This document shows, piece after piece, positions 1 to 19,397 of a DNA stretch of 20,000 bases. Each line of letters starts with the position of its first letter. Position 1 is the first letter of the stretch. Made by a program: the position numbers and the translations under genes. Below the pieces are notes generated by a model. The model did no database searches, was not told the origin of the DNA, and worked only from the letters and a program-made list of their open reading frames with translations. This DNA is from Catajapyx aquilonaris (lineage: Eukaryota), in assembly GCA_000934665.2 (NCBI GenBank), contig KZ538085.1:109044-129043 (forward strand), read 5' to 3'.

Positions 1-252
1 GATGAAGCACCTGAAGATGACACCCGTCAATATGCTGACTCCAGCCTCCAGGGTAATACCAATGGGCCTCCACCTGCCATCCTGGATGATAACCAGTCTA
101 ATCATCTTGAACCTCCTGAATCGCCAGCGATTCACTGGGGTGGCGAATACTCAGTTCCCCAGTCTCCTGCACAGTTCCCCCGACCTCCTTTCAAACTCAG
201 ACTTGTAATGACCACACCGTATAAGAGAAGTCAACAGATGAATGGAAATTGA
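1..252 (+). CDS. 3' end of coilin-like paralog A (partial; begins before the window)
   Basis: Frame 1 is open from base 1 to TGA at 250-252 and reads DEAPEDD...SLQGNTNGPPPAI...EPPESPAIHWGGEYS...PPFKLRLVMTTPYKRSQQMNGN*. This aligns with the C-terminus of the gene at 1181-2207 (DESAEDN...SIQGNPNGAPPVI...EPPESPAPHWGEFS...PLFKRRRVVTMGYARSPQLTEN*). This frame is not in the supplied ORF track. Confidence 0.7.
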   Translation, partial: DEAPEDDTRQYADSSLQGNTNGPPPAILDDNQSNHLEPPESPAIHWGGEYSVPQSPAQFPRPPFKLRLVMTTPYKRSQQMNGN

Positions 253-537
253 GTTTCATTCATCCTACGTGACAGCCAGTCATAAAGTGATACTCATACG
301 TGTTATCATTAAGTGCAGCTTACCAGAGACAGAACCACCTTTGCTCAAGATAAATGGACAAATACAAGTGTACACAATCATCGTCACAACCGATCGAGTC
401 GTGTCTGACCCTCTAATAGTAAAAGTACGTATTTGTTGTGAACGGTGCATTGTTCAGTCTTCCCACGTTTTCATTTTTCTAATAAATTCATTGAAGCTCT
501 CTGAATGTGCATATTTGATTTGATGAGGGTCGCAGCA

Positions 538-1180: not shown

Positions 1181-2207
1181 ATGAGTTCTGGAAGTATTAG
1201 CCGGGTTTTGGTGACCGTGAATGTCTCGTCGGAGTTGCCTGGACTGGTGGCGTACGTGGTGGGGGGTGAGCACATACGTGACCTGATGGAGCGTGTGGGA
1301 GAACGATGCAATGTGAAGAGAGGCACCTTTCACCTCATGTTTGGAAATGACTACTTGCATCCGGATGATCCGGTTGATGTCCTGCATCCGGATGATAGAG
1401 TCAGGTCGGTTGTGGATCAGTACGTTGCAAATAGGAGGGGCTGACGGATTATGTTCGCATTCCAGGTTGGTGTTGGGGACGTTTGATCCTGCGGTGCAGT
1501 ATCGACTAGGCCGCCGTGAGGAGGAGACTGCGGATATGTCGACAGCATCGCAGGACCATGTTGATACGGGGGCAACACCCGATGCCACACCCGACCAGCA
1601 CCAGCCGGTTGAAGCAGCTCCCGTCGCTAAACAGTCCGACGATGTGAAGGACGACAAAGAAGACTGTAAAGCAGAAGAGGAAGAAAAGCAGGAACGTAAG
1701 AAACAGCTCTCGGACACAACCACAGAGTCTGGCCCCAGGCGCCGGAATAGACGAAGCCTCCGAAGACGTCTCAGGACAAAGGCAAGAGATCGGACGACAA
1801 ATTGGCAGGAATTGAAGAATCAGAGGCAGGAAGCAACATACCAGGTGCCATACCAGGAGCAACCACGTCTAAACCACGTCAGATTCAACCAGGATGAATC
1901 AGCTGAAGATAACCCCTGCGAGACTGATGAACCGGAAGCCAGCATCCAGGGTAATCCTAATGGGGCTCCACCAGTCATCCCGGATCAACCGTTGACCTCA
2001 GGGGCTCGGGATGAAGAATCCGAGTCTGATTGTGATGAACAGTCGACGTATGCTGTGTTTTCTCCTGAACCGCCTGAATCTCCAGCCCCTCACTGGGGGG
2101 AATTCTCAGCTCTCACATCTCTTGCGCAGGCCCCACCGCCTCTTTTCAAACGCAGACGTGTTGTGACGATGGGGTATGCGAGAAGCCCACAGCTTACGGA
2201 AAATTGA
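1181..2207 (+). CDS. Coilin-like protein (paralog B), about 321 aa; exons 1181-1404 and 1466-2207
   Basis: A 61-nt GT-AG intron (1405-1465, ctgac branch site at 1441) joins two ORFs in frame. The N-terminus (..IRDLMERVGERCNVKRGTFHLMFGNDYLHPDDPVDVLHPDDRVRLV) resembles the coilin N-terminal ubiquitin-like domain. It is followed by an acidic, low-complexity region with a basic NLS-like stretch (RRRNRRSLRRRLRTKAR). The C-terminus resembles the start of the coilin Tudor region. No RG box seen. The family call is by eye. AATAAA at 2511-2520. Confidence 0.6.
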
Positions 2208-2351
2208 GTATGTGACAGCCAATCATAAAGTGTCACATGTTATCATTAAGAGGAGCCCACCCAAGACGGAGCAAGAGATGACCCAACTCTGCACAATTGA
2301 TGATATTATCATCGCAACCACATGTCAGGTTGTGTCTGGCCCTCTCTTGTA

Positions 2352-2439
2352 CTATGGGCGCCAAAAGAATTGACCGGAGTTGATGGGTATATGGTGCTAT
2401 ATACCCATCAACACCGGTCAATACTTTTGGCGCCCATAG
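2352..2439. mobile_element. 88-bp palindromic Tc1/mariner-type MITE with TA target duplication
   Basis: Flanked by TA at 2350-2351 and 2440-2441. Ends CTATGGGCGCCAAAAG(A/T)ATTGACC resemble Tc1-family TIRs. The whole 2346-2445 folds into 47-bp arms with 2 mismatches and a 6-nt loop. The homologous site in paralog A (about 411-430) is empty. Confidence 0.8.
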
Positions 2440-2915
2440 TACAAGCACGTGTATGGTACCTTTATATGGGAATGTAGCGTTTTGTTAGTCGTCCCATATT
2501 TAATTTTTCAAATAAATAAATTTGAAGCTGTACAAATGTGTAAGGTTTATTTCATGACCTCGGGTTGGATATCAGCTGACTTTTTAAATATAATTAATTG
2601 AAACACTGTCTTTCTTATAAAAATTTATTCAACAATTCTATACAGGCCGAAAAGAAAAGAATAGCAGGAAGAACAGAAAATGAAAAAGAAAAAAACAAAA
2701 CTCAGATCTGGGATAAATACAAGTTTGCGAGATGAGGTGATTAGAACACATCTCAAGATTAACTTAGACAATATTTTACCTCGATATTTACGAATAAGAG
2801 TTGACTTTCCTCTCGGACCACTGGGATGGATTTGATCTGGAGATGAACTTCTGAGAGGCTATATCACGTGTCATACGGACATTTTTTTGGGGGGATAAGC
2901 TGTCACCACTTTTAC

Positions 2916-4502
2916 TTAAATGACTTGAGAAGCTGAGCTCTGACTGGCATAAATTATAGCTCCCGTGAAGTTAATACCCGCAGCCAAAACGAACACGGGG
3001 AACCACCTTCCGTTTGACTTTACCACAAGTTCCGCAGTCAGAGGCCCGCAGAGAATACCGGGTATTGTTGCAAGGGTGTTTGAAACCGCGAAGGTGACTC
3101 CCGCATTGTTGGGTGCGACCTCCGCGTGATTTGAGAGATGCCCTGCGGAATTGCAGGCACACAGCCCCATCGAGAGGGACACAATCAGGACAGCCAGAAG
3201 TAAGCTGTCCACGGAGCAAAGGGCCAGGAGGAATGCGCCTGGACCGAGCAATCCGATGATGGTCATCAGGCGACGGACGGACAGGACTGTCCAGCCACGG
3301 GATGTAACCAGGGAGTCAGCCAAGTGGCCTGCAACTGTACGCAAGATTCAGTAACAATTCACAACTACTGCGATGCGATTAACTTACCGACGCCTACAAG
3401 CGAGTTCACGATGTAAGGCACTGCGGTGAGACTGATGCTTTCCCTGTTGGCTCCAAGGGTTCTGGCCAGATACGTCGGAAGCCACTGCATCACAATGTAG
3501 TTGCTCCAGTTCATGGCGAAGTGGGCAATGTAGATGCTCCATAGGGGCCAGTGAGACACGAATTCGACCCACCTCACCTTCTGGGTCACCTTTGGGGTCA
3601 GCAGGGGAAGGGAGTCTTGGCCCTGGGCGGACGTGGACTCTCCTCGGTACAGCACCACCCAGGCCAGACACCAGGCCAGTCCCATCCCTCCAAACATCCG
3701 GAATGAGTTGGCCCAATGCAAATGCGGGCATAAAACGGAGGCTAAAGTCTGGCCCACCTGATAACAAAAAGACGAATGAACATACGTTGCATTAGCGGTA
3801 GTTATGCGACTCACCGAACCGGCAGCCACGAGGTACCCAAATGCGCGTGACCTCTCTTCAATGGAAACCTGGTGCGCAAACATGTGGAATACTGTCGGCA
3901 ACCCCAGCCCCTCGCCAAGGCCCAACAATACGCGGGAAGCCAGCAACAATGGGAGCGACGGTGCCACCCACGGCGTCACGAGGGTCGAGACGGACCATAA
4001 CAATACTGCAAACAGAAGGACCGGCTTGCCTCCAAAGCGTGTCGCCGCACTCGCACCAATTATCTGCAATAACAAGTCATTACGTTTCACGACTAATTGT
4101 CTGGCCCAAATCTGCAAATATTCTTTCGCTTTCAGTAACTTCCATATTTTTTTAAAAATGCAAATAAACCACAGGTCAAAGTCCTGCTGTGCAATCAGTC
4201 AGCATATGGCTGATAAAATGTGATGATACGACTGCCATCAACGTTCCCAATTGAATGTTTCGACGTCTCATTATTCTTATTAGCTAGATGCGTTTTAATT
4301 GATTTTTTCCATATAAATACGCCACCTGGCTAGTGAAGTATCCGAATGCAAACGACGAGAGGATCCAGCCCTGCCAGTACAGATTCCAGTGGAACTCGTC
4401 CGTCATCGGTACGATAGCGATGGGCATCAGGACCCTGTCCGCTGCGTTAATGAAGTTTGCAGCGCTGCACAGAGCAATCAGACGGGAGCTCCCCTTCACC
4501 AT
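2916..4502 (-). CDS. MFS anion:cation symporter, SLC17A9 (vesicular nucleotide transporter)-like; exons 4502-4326, 4063-3815, 3757-3388, 3334 (or 3328)-2916
   Basis: SLC17/ACS-type motifs: NAADRVLMPIAIVPM, QGWILSSFAFGYFTSQ, RVLLGLGEGLGLP, NWSNYIVMQWLPTYL, NTLATIPGIL. GT-AG introns join the four ORF pieces in frame. A probable non-coding 5' exon lies near 4702-4860. Exact SLC17 orthology is not certain. Confidence 0.85.
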
Positions 4503-4859
4503 CTTTGCGCACGGATTACGACGAGGCTGCTGACTACTGAAATTAATTAAATATTTTGCCCAATTTTTCTTTCCCCAAAAAATAATAAGCCAGATGTTAC
4601 ATGTCGCACTGTGAACATTTAAAAAAATATATAATTACTGCGATGCCAACACAGCGACAACCCTTCACATATTATTAGTGTCATGTTGATGTGTGGCTTA
4701 CGTCGTCGGAATGGTCCAGTGTCCCTTGGAAGTCTGCTGAGTTCAATAATTTTGCAAGTTTTTAGCTCCAGTTGTCTTCACATCTTGTTATGATTTTTTT
4801 TTCTTTCTTTCTTTTTTTTAAGGATCACCAGGTATCGCCTCGTGTTATCAGATCGTCCG

Positions 4860-5113
4860 ACAATCTTATAGTTGGGGAATCGATACCGACGTGTCAGCCG
4901 CATCATTATGTACTTATTTAATTGTCTAATTATTTTTAAAAGATTTAATTACTATAAATAGTTTAATGTGTGCATGTTCGAACACAGCTGAGTGGCAGGT
5001 GTGCCAACAGTCATATTGGCTACCCTGCGGTGTGTTTCAAGATGGCGGCGCTCAGGACGTGGTTTAGTCATCTTTGTTAATTAAACTTAATTAAAAAACA
5101 CGGTTAATTAGTG
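4860..5113. promoter_or_regulatory. Putative bidirectional promoter (SLC17A9-like / PGGT1B)
   Basis: Short head-to-head intergenic region with a YY1-type caagatggcggc at 5038-5049 and a DRE-like atcgata near 4879. Confidence 0.45.
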
Positions 5114-6253
5114 ATGGATGAGGGCGATTCGCCTCCTGCCGGACGCTCCGGGCTTCGTTTGTCCAAGAGGCAGCATGTGCGTTACCTCCGATTCTGCCTG
5201 TCGTCCCTTCCGGGCAAGTTTTGCTCGTTGGACAGCAGCAGATTGACAATCGCATTCTTCGCGGTCTCTGGACTTGATTTGTTGGGAAGCATACCTGAGG
5301 ACCAGCGGGATAATATAGTCCAGTGGGTCTACTCGCTGCAGGTCGTACAATGCATTTTGAAGGTCATGCGTAAGATACTGACAAAACGGTTCACTTTGTA
5401 GGTTGTCACTGGAAGTCCGGATGAACAGTACAGAGGCGGATTCCAAGGTTCAAGTACGCTTCTTTTTAAAAATATTGATTCCACTTTGCCCTTGTGGGGT
5501 CATCGGACAGGTCACATTACGATGACCTACACTGGATTGGCCCTGTTGCTCATTTTGGGCGACGACCTCTCCGGTGTGGATCGACTGGCGTCCTTATGTG
5601 GAACTCGTGCACTGCAGATGCCGGATGGGAGCTTTCGGGCGACGCTGAGCGGCGGAGAGAGCGACATGCGGTTTGTGTATTGCGCTGCTTGTGTGTGTTA
5701 CATACTCGATGATTTCCAGAGCGGAATGGATGTACTCGCGGCTGAGGATTACATAATCAGAAGCATTACATATGAGGGTGGGATTGGTCAAGCGCCTGGC
5801 CTTGAAGCGCACGGAGGCAGCACTTTCTGTGCGGTTGCAACTCTAGCTTTGATGGGCCGGCTGGACTCGGCAATGACCAAGACACAGCTGGACAGGCTCC
5901 GACTCTGGTGCATCAGACGACAACAGGACGGATTCCAGGGAAGGCCAAACAAACCGCAGGACACATGCTATTCCTTTTGGGTCGGCGCGACTTTAAAACT
6001 GTTGGGTGCCTACAGTATGGTTCACACTGACTCAAACCATGAGTATGTGCTGAGTACACAGGATCCCATCACTGGCGGTCTTGCAAAGTGGGAAGGTTGC
6101 GACCCAGATCCACTTCACACGTATCTAGGACTGTCGGGACTTGCCCTGATGGGAGCGGATGGACTGAAAGAGGTTCACCCTGCCCTGAACATCAGTGCTG
6201 AAGCAGCAAGGCGATTGGAAGAGATTCATAAAATATGGAGATCGGAACAGTAA
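5114..6253 (+). CDS. PGGT1B: Geranylgeranyl transferase type I beta subunit, about 359 aa; exons 5114-5341 and 5402-6253
   Basis: Hallmark sequences SLDSSRLTIAFFAVSGLD, GHITMTYTGL, ESDMRFVYCA, LEAHGGSTFCA, GFQGRPNKPQDTCYSFW, DPLHTYLGLSGL; 60-nt GT-AG intron at 5342-5401. Confidence 0.95.
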
Positions 6254-7614: not shown

Positions 7615-9284
7615 CTACAACTTTTCCTTGATTGCTTTTGCTTTTGCTTTCGCCCTGAAATATAACTTCTCATAAAATCGTTCCATGTTGTCATAAAACT
7701 CTAGCCGCCGCTGCTGATGACCTCTTTCGATCTCTCCAGCTTTGGGATACGTACTCTCGTCATGCGAATCGTACTCGGTAGGATCAACAGATGGAATGAA
7801 CAGCTCACCATTGGGGTCATTCTCACCAGACGCAATTCTCTCATATAATTTTTGTTGCGCATGAATCGACTCGTCTTGGGTCTTCTTTCCTTTTGGCCGA
7901 TCACTTATCCTTTCATACACTCGTATTGATTGTGCAAGGTGCTTAGATGGTAATTGACTTTTTGTGTCATGCGATTTAACTGGTCGTCGTGTAGGACTAC
8001 TTGGTACATCAGGTGTCTTGTAGCTTCCTTTTTCTGCTACTCTCTGAGGCGATCTGTTGATTGATTTGTCTGCTTCTGTTTCAGGTGATCTATCAAGTGC
8101 GCTGTCCACTTCTGTCTGAGGGTCTTGGCCTGCTGCCATCCTGACACTTGGTACGGGAGACTTCCTGCTCAGTGTGTCGTCTACCATCCTGTAGCCGTAG
8201 GTCATCTTAGCGCCCATTTTTGCACCCCTGTCAGGAGAACTGGTCGCACCATGACGTCCAGCATATTCACGCCCAAAAAATTCGCGGTATGTCCTGCACA
8301 CATCGCATCGCTCGTTATCATGCGGGCCCACAATTTCACCGCAATTTGCACAGTTGCATCCTGCAGGTACGGCTGTTCTCCACCCATGAGCTTTCCGTTG
8401 TCTGGGAGGTGATGGGGAATAGTCCCAATTGGTATCGCCTGGTATGCATCTTTGATGGAACCCTCTATGTTTTGGCGGTAGAATCTGTTGCAAGGAACAT
8501 CTCTGGAGCAAATTCTCCGTTTCCCTTCCTGGGTACCGACCAATCAAGCCCGCCGAGACATGCCGGACCACAAAAGGCGGTCGCCTATCGAGGCCAGTTT
8601 GATCCACCCATGGGCCACCTACAGTGTGAGGTCGAATATAATTTAAGCCGGCCAAAGTGGCATCCAAATGGGCTCCCAACATGGACGGCTCGGGCGAGAC
8701 AACTGTCTTTGACATCACTTCCAATTTTGGGCTTAGGCAGCTCTGAAACATATTTATCACACCTAATGTAAGTGATGAATGTATTGAATTTTTGCGCAGT
8801 ACATGATAAACACACTGTGCTTACAGGAAAGTCTCTGGTGGTGTCCATGATGAGATCCAGCCCCACGGATTGTACATGTGGGCTGTTCCTCGGATACGGA
8901 AAGAGAATCTCACTTGCAGAGCACTCGAAGGATGCCAGCGTCATCTCCGCGTTATGAGATGTCTCCTGAACCATCTCGACGAACACGGATTCTCTGTCCA
9001 GTTGTTTCTGTACCCCATTGAAGTTCAGCGCCCCACGATACACCTGCAATAAAACTCAACTGTTAATTGGTTTCGCATTATCGCAGTAAGTGAAACCGGA
9101 CCTTTTCGCACTCAAAGTTAGAGTTGAAGATGAGCGGAAAGACAGGCGAGACCCTCTGCGTCCTTCCTCTGAACCCAATGAGCGACACGTACAGGTGGAT
9201 CATACCAGGTCTGGGCAGCGACACTCCGGGACAGGTGACGGCCTGCACCTCCAGCTGCACCACAACTTTGACCCCTCGTGACAT
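7615..9284 (-). CDS. SPATA6-like (spermatogenesis-associated protein 6 family), about 509 aa; exons 9284-9102, 9043-8825, 8742-7615
   Basis: N-terminal SPATA6 domain pattern VVVQLEVQAVTCPGV...SPVFPLIF..F..EK...LFPYP...DFP..SPKLE. Phase-0 GT-AG introns at 9101-9044 and 8824-8743. Long low-complexity C-terminal exon. Confidence 0.8.
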
Positions 9285-10887: not shown

Positions 10888-10946
10888 CTACAATCCTGAT
10901 GGACTCTGCCGCATGGTTCCTGTGCCTGTAGAAGACGTTTGGAAGG
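10888..10946 (-). repeat. 59-bp duplicated fragment of the SETD9 last exon
   Basis: 55 of 59 bases identical to 12762-12820, same orientation. Confidence 0.9.
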
Positions 10947-12690: not shown

Positions 12691-13672
12691 TTAGTGCACC
12701 ACTGTGAAGTAGGAGGAGAGGATTTCTTCTCCTTGGGCGATCTCTCTAGTTGCAACAAGCGCTACGATCCTGATGGACTCTGCGCCGTGGTTCCTGTGCC
12801 TGTAGAAGACGTTTGGAAGGTGCCTCTGCAAGTACGGCGGGAAGGTGTGGGGCACGTTGCATTCTTGATAGGCGACGTTGGTTGCCTCGTCACTGGAGGC
12901 ATTGTTGACGTACTGCCCCACGTTCAGTGGACTTAAGGGCATCCCTCCAAGCCATGTGAGGTCGCTCAGAACCTGGGTGACGACCCTCTCCCGATTTGAG
13001 CAGGATTGGTAAATGACCCTGGACAATCCAGAGTCCTTTCCATCCACGTGGACTCCATCGATGCAGCGCAGGATGAACCGGTTGCCAATAGACGGCAGCA
13101 GCACAGGCTCGAAGCGGCGGTACACGGTCCCTGCCATGTCGACAATCACTGCCGGGTAATGACATTAATTGTGATAATTCGTACCTGGGTAGAGCGCAAC
13201 GATGGATCCAGGCTTGGCAGTTCCTGAGGCCAGAAACACGCCAATCCCAGCGCCTGGAATGTTGCTCTTCTGGCGCGATATGCTGAATCCGAAGCAATCT
13301 TGCATTACCTGTAATTAGGGTATAGGCGCTTGTTTTCTGCTCAAAAGGCATGTTATTGGAATGATGCTGACCTGCATGTTCCTGCGGTTGCCTGCTTCTG
13401 GCTCAATGATAGGGGAGTAGTCTTCCAGTCGGTGGAACAGGCTGACGAGGCTCTCCAGGACCAGGTCATCGCTGATTATCTTGTCCTTGTTGCTGCCCTT
13501 CTGAACGCTCCGTACCCTTCTGCCCTTCAGGAAATAATCTCATGTAATTCTGTTCATTTTTTTGTCCCCTCCCCTCCAACAGCTGACCTGACCTGTGCTT
13601 GAGGTTGAAGGCCAGCCAGGGAACCAGCCTGTACCTGTACTCCCTCCACTTGCTGCCCACATTACGCAGCAT
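12691..13672 (-). CDS. SETD9: SET domain-containing protein 9, about 263 aa; exons 13672-13593, 13519-13372, 13308-13185, 13130-12691
   Basis: WREYRYRLVPWLAFNL, KDKIISD, GAGIGVF, VALYPGTVY, SIGNRFILRCIDG, PLNVGQYVNN, NVAYQEC, LVATREIAQGEEILSSYFT match SETD9. GT-AG introns join the pieces in frame. Confidence 0.92.
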
Positions 13673-15117: not shown

Positions 15118-15874
15118 AGACCTTGTCGCCGTGACGTCATATGTTTACATTTTTGGCCCGGCGGCCATATTGGGTAGAAGGAAGACCATTGTAAACATAG
15201 GGAACCAGCAGGTTTTTAATTTTTTAAACAGCGCTGAAGCAATAGGATCTTAGTAGACGACAGACTTCCCAACAACCGGACCTATCCGGATCTTCCTGGC
15301 CCCACCCGGGATCTCCACTGTACCTTGCTCCCTCTGTACCCTCTCTTGAAAAAAATCCCAAACCTAATGTTCATTGTAGCTGGTGCACACTCCAGTGATA
15401 ACTGCTACGCGAGTACAGACCCGATCGCCGTGTTTACTTTTTTTTGTTGCCCGGCGGCCATCATCTCAGAGGAAAACTATGAAGTGTATGGTACTTTCGG
15501 TCTACCAACCTCTGGTATGATCCCTGCCCGGTATAATAATCCGCCCCAGGTGCAATATGTCACTATATGCTATATGCTATATGCTATATGTCACCATACC
15601 GTTAATAAATAGCTACAATGAACATTAGGTTTGGGATTTTTTTCAAGAGAGGGTACAGAGGGAGCAAGGTACAGTGGAGAACCCGGGTGGGGCTGGGAAG
15701 ATCCGGATAGGTCCGGTTGTTGGGAAGTCTGTCGTATACTAAGATCCTAGTGCTTCAGAGCTGTTTAAAAATTAAAAACCTGCTGGTTCCCTATGTTTAC
15801 AATGGTCTTCCTTCTACCCAATATGGCCGCCGGGCCTTGGCCACGCCCACCCGTGACGTAGCGCGACAAGGTCT
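15118..15874. mobile_element. 757-bp foldback MITE with AT TSD (ISL2EU-like)
   Basis: Perfect 12-bp TIR AGACCTTGTCGC...GCGACAAGGTCT, with AT at 15116-15117 and 15875-15876. Near-identical subterminal inverted arms of about 226 bp (15155-15381 vs 15611-15836). No transposase. Confidence 0.88.
15562..15590 (+). repeat. Short tandem repeat (ctatatg)x4 in the MITE spacer
   Basis: actatatgctatatgctatatgctatatg. Confidence 0.8.
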
Positions 15875-15894
15875 ATACGTCACGGCTAAAAGGT

Positions 15895-16145
15895 TGTCAG
15901 ATTCCGCACTGCAGAACCGTACCCTGGCTAGCTCAAGTACTGGGTTCAGTAATGATACTACGGACTGGGGATAAATCAGTGTGTATTACGATTCAGAGGT
16001 TACAGAGCCCAACCCGCACACTCCTGCTCGGGTGGCAGACAGGGACCGACTGGGGAAGGTGGGGCGAACCCCCCCTCCTCCTTACAAAGGGTGAAAAGCT
16101 TTCCGCAGGGGCAACCATGTGGCAGGGTTGCCACATGGTGTCACA
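15895..16145 (-). repeat. 3' LTR (251 bp)
   Basis: Direct repeat of 19140-19389, differing by one substitution (attcagagg vs attctgagg) and one C in a homopolymer run. Confidence 0.95.
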
Positions 16146-19120
16146 ATACCCCACGTTACAAAAATCAGCAGACACCTGCTGATGTCACTTCAAAATTCCC
16201 CCTCCTACTACTAAAAGTTCAAATCACTTAACACATGTTCCATCCAGCGAGCTCAACTGGAAAGAAATTTTTTCACATACACACACATGCACACCAACAT
16301 GTAGATTCGTCCACGCTGCATACTACTGGATCCCAGTTCCGGCGTCCCGGAAGCCGCATACGCACACAGGCAGCCATGGTACAAAAGTCCAGGCAGCACA
16401 CGCCAAACACACGCTTCGCAGGAGGTCCCATCTTCAGAAAGCTCCTCGAAGAAATCAACAGCAGTGCCATTCCAAAACCCCGGAATGCGCACAAGTCCAG
16501 GTCATGCACCTCAACAAGTGGCACATCCACTCATGACCAGTGCACCGGCTGAGAAGCATCCCAACCACAACACACGCGACTCGCACGTGCCACAGGATAA
16601 CAGCTAGTCTTCATCCACTACGTCACCACAGTTCAGCACATCAACCACATGCTCACCTCCTGGAAAGGTCCTTCCACGTGACGACGTCTTCTCCTCCTCT
16701 TCTTCTCTCCATCCAGCTGATCACAGCCAGAACAGCCAGCAGCACCATCGTTATCGGTGGGACAGCAGCTGGCGACTCGAGAGATGACACATCACTCCAG
16801 CAGTCCATCGTAGCCCCCACAAGCAGCTAACGACAATCACCCCAGTGTCGACGGCCGGGTACGGTGGTCAGGTGTCCTAGGACCTCGCTCAAGGACTTTC
16901 AGCCCCCTTTTCCAGGCAGGAGTGGCACTTTGTGTTAACCACCCCCACCCTTCTCCCGGCGCCAGTCCATTGACCCCCAAACCCCCTCCTTATGGCCACC
17001 CGATACCGGGTCTTGGCTCTTTGCCAGACTTTCAGGCACACCAAAAACGCCCACGGCTACTTAACAAGCCAACGTCAGGTGTCTCGACCCCTATGACCAT
17101 AGAGTCGTACGACAAACCTACTGTGCTACCCAGCCTCCAGGGACTTCCAGAGCGACCACTGTCACTCGAGCCCAAGCACATGGTAGCACCACCTTCCACG
17201 CGTAGGTACCCACAAGGGGATTTAACTGACAACAGGGCAGGATGACTCGCATCCACGTGGGCAGCGACCATTTCGCTGGCCAAAGGTCAGGTCTCAAAAT
17301 TCAAGACCATCGGCATCATACATTCAACAATGTAGCCAATCCGTCCTCGACATTTGCAACGACGGTGTTCGCATCAGGATCACACCCGATGTAAACAACG
17401 ACCCACCCGACAATACGTCATTGGGTCGGTCAACATGTGGTCAGTCGACCCAACATGTGGCCTCAATTCTGGTCCGTCCAACTCCGTTGGCGCGAACTCG
17501 CAGGCACACGATGAAACCTTAGCATCCGCCCACAACAGTTAGTCCAACAATCATCGTTGACTGACTCGGTACTCACATTGACGGAATACACTCCCCCATC
17601 CTGCGACAACCAAGATGAGCACAGTAGCCAATAGTGTCCACTACTGACTTGTCCGAATTAATGGCACGCATTAATTCAAAGGCATTGCGCTAACCAAGCA
17701 ACGAATTGCCTACATCTGGTCGAACTGCACATTCCAGTACAACCAACCCGACCGATAATCCCACCGAATGAGTCACATTCAGCAACGTGGGTACGAGAAA
17801 AGAAACGTCCGTTTCTTCCTCCAGCGGCCAGATGACCCGATTTTCCGTTATCTGACAGGAAGCCAAATGCAGTACGCATTTATTCTTCTCATCGGCCGCA
17901 TCATGCTTGCCACATGATTGAACGGCCACATGCCCAATATCAGCACAGTACTTACTATGCTTCTCAGGACACACTTGCGTCAGAGGATATGACCATCCCC
18001 ATCAACAATATTTCTGGGCGCCACTTCCGGTTAACTTCCGGAAGAATATCCGGTGACAAATAATGCAACATTTTATCACACAGAAATTGAGCGGACTGTG
18101 TCCAACAATGGACACAACTGCCCCCTCTGGTATGGCAGCATCAGCCTCCAGAGACCATGGACTCTGTTCCGGTGCAACCAACAGCACCCCGGAACTCTCC
18201 ACCAGGGTGGGAAGCAGCAGACTTCTACTGACATTCTCCCCCAAGCCAGATGCGTCACACAGCAAACTTACCATGTGTCACAACTAGTTTGGAAACCAAA
18301 ATGCTCCTCGCACTTTTCTTTCCTTTCGCCACCCCAAAAAGGGTCCTCCTGTTGACCTTCAAGAGCTGAGCTCCAAAGTCAGGCGAGATCGGAATGTGCC
18401 CACTCCTTTCTCCCCCAAGAAGGGTCCTCCTGCAATCCGCAAGAGCCCCTCCCTCCGCTGGCGCTGGTGCCACACCGCACCCCAGCTAACAAAGGAAGGC
18501 TGTGCATTCCTTCAATGCACTGTTGCCATATTTTTGTGCTGCATGTACCGGTACCGCAAATGTACATACATTTGGTACGCGTACATCCACACTAACTCGT
18601 GACGCAATTACGCCACAATCAGCACTGTTGCATCAGCAACATGGCGGCAACAACGGTTGTACGTGCTTCCAGCAAGTCAACCACGTCGTACAGCGGACTT
18701 TCATCAGCATGTGCCGATGTCCGCTCCGACAATAGGTGGACGATGAGACCACCGCTATGTCGGTGAGACATGTATGGAAGCGTACACCTTCCAGTACCAT
18801 GTCAGCACCAGCCGGACAAATGCACGGGCACGCCCGCCATCTTGTCCTGCATCTGCATGAGCGTCAGCTAACGGCCTGCAGAGAGTGCAACTGCGCCTCC
18901 GGAACCGGAATTTACCGACTCCGGATTTACAGCAGGGTCATTGAGGACGGCTTCGTCGTTCGTCCCCCTCAACCCAACGTACGGCGGCAAGCCAACGCTG
19001 ACTTGCCCACCCGTACCGACCCCAACACCCTTGCTCGAATTCAAGCAAGTGTATATGGTCACAAGTCTCAACCTCTTCCCGCAGTCCGCCCTCACGAAAA
19101 TACATACAGATATACTGTAT

Positions 19121-19138: not shown

Positions 19139-19139
19139 T

Positions 19140-19389
19140 TGTCAGATTCCGCACTGCAGAACCGTACCCTGGCTAGCTCAAGTACTGGGTTCAGTAATGA
19201 TACTACGGACTGGGGATAAATCAGTGTGTATTACGATTCTGAGGTTACAGAGCCCAACCCGCACACTCCTGCTCGGGTGGCAGACAGGGACCGACTGGGG
19301 AAGGTGGGGCGAACCCCCCTCCTCCTTACAAAGGGTGAAAAGCTTTCCGCAGGGGCAACCATGTGGCAGGGTTGCCACATGGTGTCACA
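19140..19389 (-). repeat. 5' LTR (250 bp)
   Basis: Direct repeat of 15895-16145, adjacent to the PBS. Confidence 0.95.
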
Positions 19390-19397
19390 AGGTCCAT

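Follow-up and report, generated by a model that had tools for sequence, protein, structure and literature searches.

The window analysed here, a eukaryotic and gene-dense stretch of 20,000 nucleotides, carries one gene twice, as tandem copies (A and B) about 1.9 kb apart. Copy B is complete and encodes a product of 321 residues; copy A starts upstream of the window, and the comparison of the two copies covers their 3' parts. When copy B exon 2 was compared with the window by tblastn, copy A was matched at 37-249 (E 2.6e-12), and no further copy beyond A and B was found in the window. Contigs of sequencing run X1, the kind of which is not on record, were treated as RNA-derived because eight stretches of 53-262 nt, bounded by GT..AG or CT..AC, are missing from them. 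The features of the two copies were delimited as follows, with the evidence given in brackets.

1..252, plus strand: end of the copy A coding sequence, its last 83 frame-0 codons and the stop TGA at 250-252 (ORF list, tblastn, X1 depth).
251..418, plus strand: conserved part of the copy A +1 ORF, the frame being open over 242-523 (ORF list, alignment, stop counts).
481..486, plus strand: AATAAA of copy A, within the still-open +1 frame (read from the sequence; presumed poly(A) role).
1181..1404, plus strand: copy B exon 1, from the ATG, 74 codons and 2 nt (X1 contig on 1211-1401, resuming at 1463).
1405..1465, plus strand: copy B intron, 61 nt, GT..AG (X1 joint from 1401 to 1463, skipping 61 nt, cut +3).
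1466..2207, plus strand: coding part of copy B exon 2, with the stop TGA at 2205-2207 (X1 contig colinear over 1595-2340).
2206..2351, plus strand: conserved part of the copy B +1 ORF, the frame being open over 2167-2373 (ORF list, alignment, tblastn).
2511..2520, plus strand: two overlapping AATAAA of copy B (read from the sequence; presumed function).

Three neighbours of the gene pair could be named.

2916-4634, minus strand: MFS transporter.
5108-6253: prenyltransferase beta subunit.
8585-9055, minus strand: SPATA6-like ORF (Pfam match).

The SPATA6 match points to an animal source. Within the duplicated 3' flank, the segment kept best (680-743 and 2595-2647, 84-88%) contains, in its copy B part, a minus-strand AATAAA which probably serves the convergent MFS gene, so that the duplication unit would have carried the 3' end of this neighbour along. 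Further away, the plus-strand GT..AG joints 8287-8366 and 8768-8826 oppose long minus-strand ORFs (7615-8820) and the SPATA6 match; they may stem from an antisense transcript that is spliced, or the gene model may need re-reading. A 59-nt repeat (10888-10946 and 12762-12820, 93% identity, 1.9 kb apart) lies in plus-strand ORFs that share a peptide, and these ORFs may be another tandem gene pair. Two further features look like transposable elements: direct repeats, about 250 nt long and 3.2 kb apart (15894-16146 and 19139-19390, 99% and 91% identity), and a foldback (15155-15381 and 15611-15836) whose arms of 168 nt and 73 nt are 95-99% complementary.

The two copies of the gene end in the same way. 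The TGA at 250-252 in copy A and at 2205-2207 in copy B is preceded by AAT and followed by G in both, and only the +1 frame stays open past it, two points of the initial annotation that our analysis bears out. Stop-to-stop, the +1 ORF spans 242-523 (93 codons) in copy A, where it opens just three codons ahead of the TGA, and 2167-2373 (68 codons) in copy B; the other frames carry stops. Indeed, the +1 frame of copy A contains a single stop in 271 nt, versus 5 and 10 in the other two frames, and the third frame past the stop contains 10 stops in copy A and 9 in copy B. Exactly at the TGA, the protein-level likeness between the copies leaves frame 0 and continues in the +1 frame. The copy B +1 part was matched to copy A 266-418 by tblastn (E 2.6e-5), with 23-25 identical residues among 46 aligned columns, depending on which of two alignments was considered. 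The gaps between the two peptides amount to 4, 2 and 2 codons, that is 12, 6 and 6 nt, so that the length differences are multiples of three, as had been claimed.

Such openness was evaluated against shuffled sequences. Among 20000 shuffles of copy A 251-523, a fraction of 0.0022 reached 90 codons in the +1 frame, and among shuffles of copy B 2206-2351 a fraction of 0.063 reached 48 codons. The +1 frame is also open across AATAAA in both copies and, with the transposon described below left out of copy B, it stays open for 101 codons there; as coding across AATAAA is unlikely, chance openness does occur at this locus.

Other accounts of the shared TGA were set aside. Selenocysteine insertion or TGA readthrough in frame 0 would end at a common TAA only 10 codons further in copy A (283-285) and 6 codons further in copy B (2226-2228). 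A SECIS element was looked for with Rfam over the window, where no family reached the gathering score. Recent gene conversion spreading the stop from one copy to the other was rejected because only about 11 nt around the TGA are identical.

Run X1 indicated that this arrangement is present in transcripts. An X1 contig of 746 nt covers 1595-2340 of copy B with no other letter, no gap and no joint. This colinear contig shows that the copy B stop is not an assembly error, which settles for this copy a check proposed in the initial annotation. As the contig is intron-less and runs unbroken through the stop, no splice around this stop is present in the assembled mRNA; the X1 data are contigs, however, which can drop rare forms. 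In copy A, the X1 depth was 7.52 over 1-300 and 0.98 over 301-600. From this depth, and from the fact that no difference, indel or joint occurs there among the matches listed, we infer that the copy A stop is likewise no assembly error. The shared stop, with its open +1 continuation, is thus real and transcribed.

The distal end of the copy B +1 ORF has been modified by an insertion.

2352..2439, no strand assigned: palindromic miniature transposon of 88 nt, with TA duplicated at 2350-2351 and 2440-2441 (inverted repeat, ends matching with 0 and 1 mismatch).

This element is found in copy B and is missing from copy A. It resembles TA-flanked palindromic miniature inverted-repeat elements (MITEs) in its terminal inverted repeats, its target duplication, the empty site in the paralogue and the occurrence of other copies in X1 contigs. 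We take it to be a MITE, possibly derived from Tc1/mariner elements. The last seven codons and the stop of the copy B +1 ORF lie inside it. Loose ends of X1 contigs at 2348 and 2392 indicate that other copies of the MITE are transcribed elsewhere. A further set of loose ends, at 2256/2257 and 2289/2292, delimits a short repeated piece within the copy B +1 ORF: in several X1 contigs the match to the window is limited to about 33 nt at 2257-2292, with unlike sequence on both sides. This piece lies in the stretch of the copy B +1 ORF that aligns worst with copy A.

The family to which the gene belongs was then considered, as the genes had initially been described as coilin-like. Neither Pfam, PDB sequences nor two protein searches supported this description, and the Atlas and AlphaFold2 did not either. 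Pfam hmmscan, run on six pieces including both read-through peptides with X and accepting E-values up to 10, found no Coilin_N, Tudor or other family above the cut-off, and its only rows, all below the cut-off, were TetR_N (E 0.22), CDC45 (E 7.7) and PTP_tm (E 0.13). The sole match in the PDB sequence search was an antibody chain (E 1.5). A word-indexed protein search yielded 1053 word-sharing candidates, none of them at E <= 0.01, and HMMER, applied to exon 1 against 1.84 billion representatives, returned two internally repetitive proteins with seven stretches each, which are artefacts. No homologue of any kind, coilins included, was detected in these protein searches. The search of metagenome contigs by protein and by a 24-nt conserved block gave no additional copy of the gene, and no relative was present among 11 candidates obtained when the +1 peptide was compared with longer proteins.

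Exon 1, a query which covers only 74 residues of the N-terminal domain, the remainder lying behind the intron, was placed among ubiquitin-like folds in the Atlas, with Coilin_N at rank 18 (score 0.79), below DWNN, CIDE-N and TDP-43_N. The unaltered +1 ORF of copy A had a recognition of 1266 in the Atlas and no usable match. AlphaFold2 gave pLDDT values of 44.9 for exon 1 and 46.7 for the +1 peptide, the latter with four strands, at low confidence; both models are too unreliable as fold-search queries. Folding the frame-0 piece and the +1 piece as two chains gave a score of 0.00, which weighs neither way.

The middle of coilin is disordered and contains nuclear localisation signals and an RG box. 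In the copy B translation there are runs of acidic residues and a cluster rich in arginine, but no RG repeats. Coilin, the scaffold of Cajal bodies, is conserved in its N- and C-terminal domains, of which the second is Tudor-like, according to the accessible text of PMC10494742. Compared with that description, the present gene shares a small N-terminal domain with ubiquitin-like neighbours in the Atlas, a charged middle with an arginine-rich cluster, and a short, strand-like C-terminal part in a low-confidence model. Unlike coilin, its 321-residue product shows no sequence or profile match to Coilin_N (PF15862), the N-terminal self-association domain, or to any Tudor family. The likeness to coilin is one of layout only, and the coilin label is unsupported.

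Selection on the +1 frame was evaluated by comparing copies A and B, a comparison which rests on two tandem paralogues of one window. Eight synonymous third-position changes in this frame had been put forward as unexpected of neutral sequence. The eight pairs are present, but the departure from neutrality fails, as a control frame behaves similarly. Differences at +1 codon positions 1, 2 and 3 numbered 11, 12 and 15, each out of 41, a flat distribution. Over gap-free blocks (41 codons), omega was 0.41 in the +1 frame, where the two control frames gave 2.08 and 0.53; over the best-aligned blocks the corresponding values were 0.39, 2.49 and 0.36. The undisputed coding sequence upstream, compared over 75 codons, had an omega of 0.82; its three codon positions showed 19, 21 and 21 differences, each out of 75. 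As this true coding sequence gives no signal either, the omega test has little power: substitution tests on the +1 frame say nothing either way, and changes like the eight synonymous ones would turn up in any frame.

Codon usage was no more informative. Trained on 980 codons of neighbouring genes, it lost its preference for the +1 frame once stop codons were excluded, with 839 of 3000 (copy A) and 2238 of 3000 (copy B) stop-free shuffles scoring at least as high as observed, and it also failed to tell apart the true frames of the gene. Nucleotide identity between the copies was 187/246 (76%) in the upstream coding sequence, 99/141 (70%) past the stop and 158/220 (72%) in the 3' flank, in whose alignment there are about 19 gaps, most of which are not divisible by three. 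The middle of the +1 region is barely alignable between A and B. As for the coding part of the copies (1-249 and 1893-2204), its protein evolves almost as neutral sequence would (omega about 0.8, 54% amino-acid identity), and it is still in frame, with gaps of 6, 48, 12 and 3 nt.

The survival of the +1 frame was examined in a neutral simulation, which started from the copy A sequence and scored, over 1500 trials per setting, whether both descendants remained open and in register. Without indels, this occurred in fractions of 0.17 (divergence 0.30) and 0.12 (divergence 0.38) of the trials. With 0.1 indels per substitution, the fractions were 0.0087 and 0.0047, respectively, and with 0.3 indels per substitution they were 0.002 and 0. 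A +1 frame that is open with all gaps multiples of three is thus unlikely for a neutral relic once indels are allowed. It should be noted that the case was picked from a very large scan, in which a one-in-a-hundred coincidence is expected somewhere.

The best explanation of the locus, which we hold tentatively as a whole, is a fast-evolving, lineage-restricted, two-exon gene from an animal with short introns, with two or more copies in tandem. Its truncation by a frameshift, which we favour with the same caution, would go back to a one-base insertion that preceded the duplication, left a short main product and turned the former tail into the +1 ORF. From a mechanistic point of view, an extra base ahead of GAG (the T of AAT-T-GAG) would have shifted the frame and created an immediate TGA, which both copies would have inherited and which their mature mRNAs would keep. 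The short protein, which has 321 residues in copy B, would be the main product, and the +1 ORF would be the old C-terminal part, now in the 3' UTR. We infer the one-base insertion, the past membership of the +1 ORF in the protein and its present dispensability from several observations taken together. The two copies have AAT TGA G in common, and it is there that the likeness between them leaves frame 0 for the +1 frame; X1 removes the 61-nt intron cleanly yet runs through the stop; the region past the stop is no better conserved than its surroundings, with flat codon positions and an omega matched by a control; a transposon at the end of the copy B +1 ORF supplies its stop; and no conserved RNA structure is found at a fixed distance from the TGA. 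Several points count against this truncation. A neutral relic should decay, and in the simulation with indels fewer than 1% of the trials stayed open; the three gaps of the +1 region are all multiples of three, unlike most of those in the 3' flank; moreover, the true coding sequence upstream is equally featureless, so that by this measure the +1 region looks as coding as real coding sequence. Among the three alternatives of the initial annotation, the third, ancestral truncation with relic sequence, is therefore the one we prefer, frameshifting and splicing being rated lower. Each of these two would nevertheless explain the survival of the frame better than a relic does.

A splice form reaching the +1 ORF was considered for two candidate stretches.

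1951..2218, plus strand: candidate intron of the initial annotation, corresponding to 53-275 in copy A (retained in X1 contigs).
2160..2208, plus strand: candidate GT..AG stretch of 49 nt, of equal length in copy A (205-253), whose removal joins frame 0 to the +1 frame (retained in the X1 contig).

If one of them were removed from a minor fraction of the transcripts, the long protein would come from that fraction and the short one from the transcripts that keep the stretch. Such splicing is conventional and would account for the survival of the frame; we regard it as unlikely. The proposal of a splice joining 1950 to 2219 in copy B, and 52 to 276 in copy A, stands in so far as GT and AG are conserved and the frame does change from 0 to +1, which is true of both candidates in both copies, and falls in so far as these junctions are absent from the X1 contigs. 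Neither candidate joint is among the nine listed for these contigs, and copy B is covered unbroken over 1595-2340 while the 61-nt intron is removed. Besides, when the four conserved GT were combined with the six conserved AG, 7 of the 24 pairs shifted frame 0 to +1 in both copies, and about a third are expected to do so by chance. The 49-nt candidate has a length close to that of five of the eight confirmed introns in the window, which measure 53-61 nt; its acceptor is GAG with T at exon position -1, whereas all eight confirmed acceptors are CAG or TAG. The acceptor at 2218 of copy B is itself preceded by a purine-rich run.

Programmed +1 frameshifting, in which some ribosomes would skip a U at AAU UGA G and make, besides the short form of 321 residues in copy B, a form about 55 residues longer, appears improbable. 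The arrangement is nonetheless the one expected of it: in both copies the stop of ORF1 is overlapped by an ORF2 that takes over exactly there and runs on in the +1 frame, which survives, its only gaps being 12, 6 and 6 nt long, and the mRNA contig retains the stop, with no splice or base change to do the job instead. The AAT TGA G is kept in two of two copies, both of them tandem paralogues in one window. Signals that might stimulate such an event were searched for next to the site, and one weak stem was recorded.

2209..2239 (copy B), plus strand: weak 6-bp stem with one covarying pair (UA/CG), formed in copy A by 266-271 with 297-302 (consensus energy -2.9 kcal/mol).

This stem, with its covarying pair, lies after the site as a stimulator would, but it starts 1 nt past the TGA in copy B and 13 nt past it in copy A, a 12-nt gap between the copies falling directly behind the shift site. 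Single-sequence folds of 95-110 nt from the site gave z values of -0.27 and -0.26. A stimulatory structure at a fixed distance from the stop was not found in the two copies, and, as seen above, codon positions do not set the +1 frame apart. The MITE, in addition, shortens the long form in copy B. A G after UGA favours termination, and ornithine decarboxylase antizyme is almost the sole known case of chromosomal +1 frameshifting in animals.

The locus was compared with known systems. As in antizyme, ORF1 ends with UGA and the rest of the protein would lie directly behind it in the +1 frame (PMC5009743, accessible text). Antizyme sites, however, are mostly UCC_UGA and are flanked by stimulators, for instance a pseudoknot located 3 nt downstream, whereas the site here is AAU_UGA_G; among the shift sites named in the accessible text of PMC5009743, which are UCC_UGA, CCC_UGA and GCG_UGA_C, AAU_UGA does not appear. 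The +1 frameshifting of Euplotes similarly combines an internal stop with a +1 continuation, but the accessible parts of PMC4759687 and PMC10235951 describe it as a genome-wide property of these ciliates, of which there is no sign in the present multi-gene, animal-type locus with spliced genes. A further comparison is with 'corrective' frameshifting, in which a DNA indel is partly offset by low-level shifting and the unshifted product stays dominant; the cases given in the accessible text of PMC5009743 are mostly mitochondrial or viral, while frameshifting at the present locus is hypothetical.

It may also be asked whether the protein always ended at the TGA, the +1 ORF never having been coding and being open by chance, and the likeness between the copies being that of duplicated 3' UTRs. 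The identity past the stop equals that of the non-coding 3' flank (70% and 72%), the +1 peptide has no family, fold or language-model signal (no Pfam match, Atlas recognition of 1266, pLDDT of 46.7), and the +1 frame of copy B, once the MITE is excised, is open past AATAAA. This origin is nevertheless quite improbable, as only 0.0022 of the copy A shuffles stay open for 90 codons, the other two frames have 5-10 stops each, and such an origin does not account for gaps of 12, 6 and 6 nt. Translation of the +1 ORF alone, by re-initiation or leaky scanning from the ATG that lies ahead of the stop in each +1 ORF (242 in copy A, 2176 in copy B), is very improbable. The two ATGs do not occupy homologous positions, each has roughly 1 kb of mRNA with many other ATGs ahead of it, and no other observation speaks for such a start.

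This analysis indicates that synonymous counts between two fast-evolving paralogues prove nothing without control frames. If the +1 frame were decoded by the ribosome, the gene would join a very short list of animal chromosomal genes with a +1 frameshift, and its shift site would be unlike that of antizyme. That a non-antizyme nuclear gene of an animal undergoes +1 frameshifting at AAU UGA G in both paralogues, its long form gaining a beta-rich, possibly Tudor-like domain, is improbable; were it true, the presence of the C-terminal domain would be a translational switch in a coilin-like scaffold protein. As it stands, the locus would offer a clean frameshift-truncated orphan gene whose cut-off tail can still be read in two diverged and transcribed copies, and it is useful as a test case for ribosome profiling.
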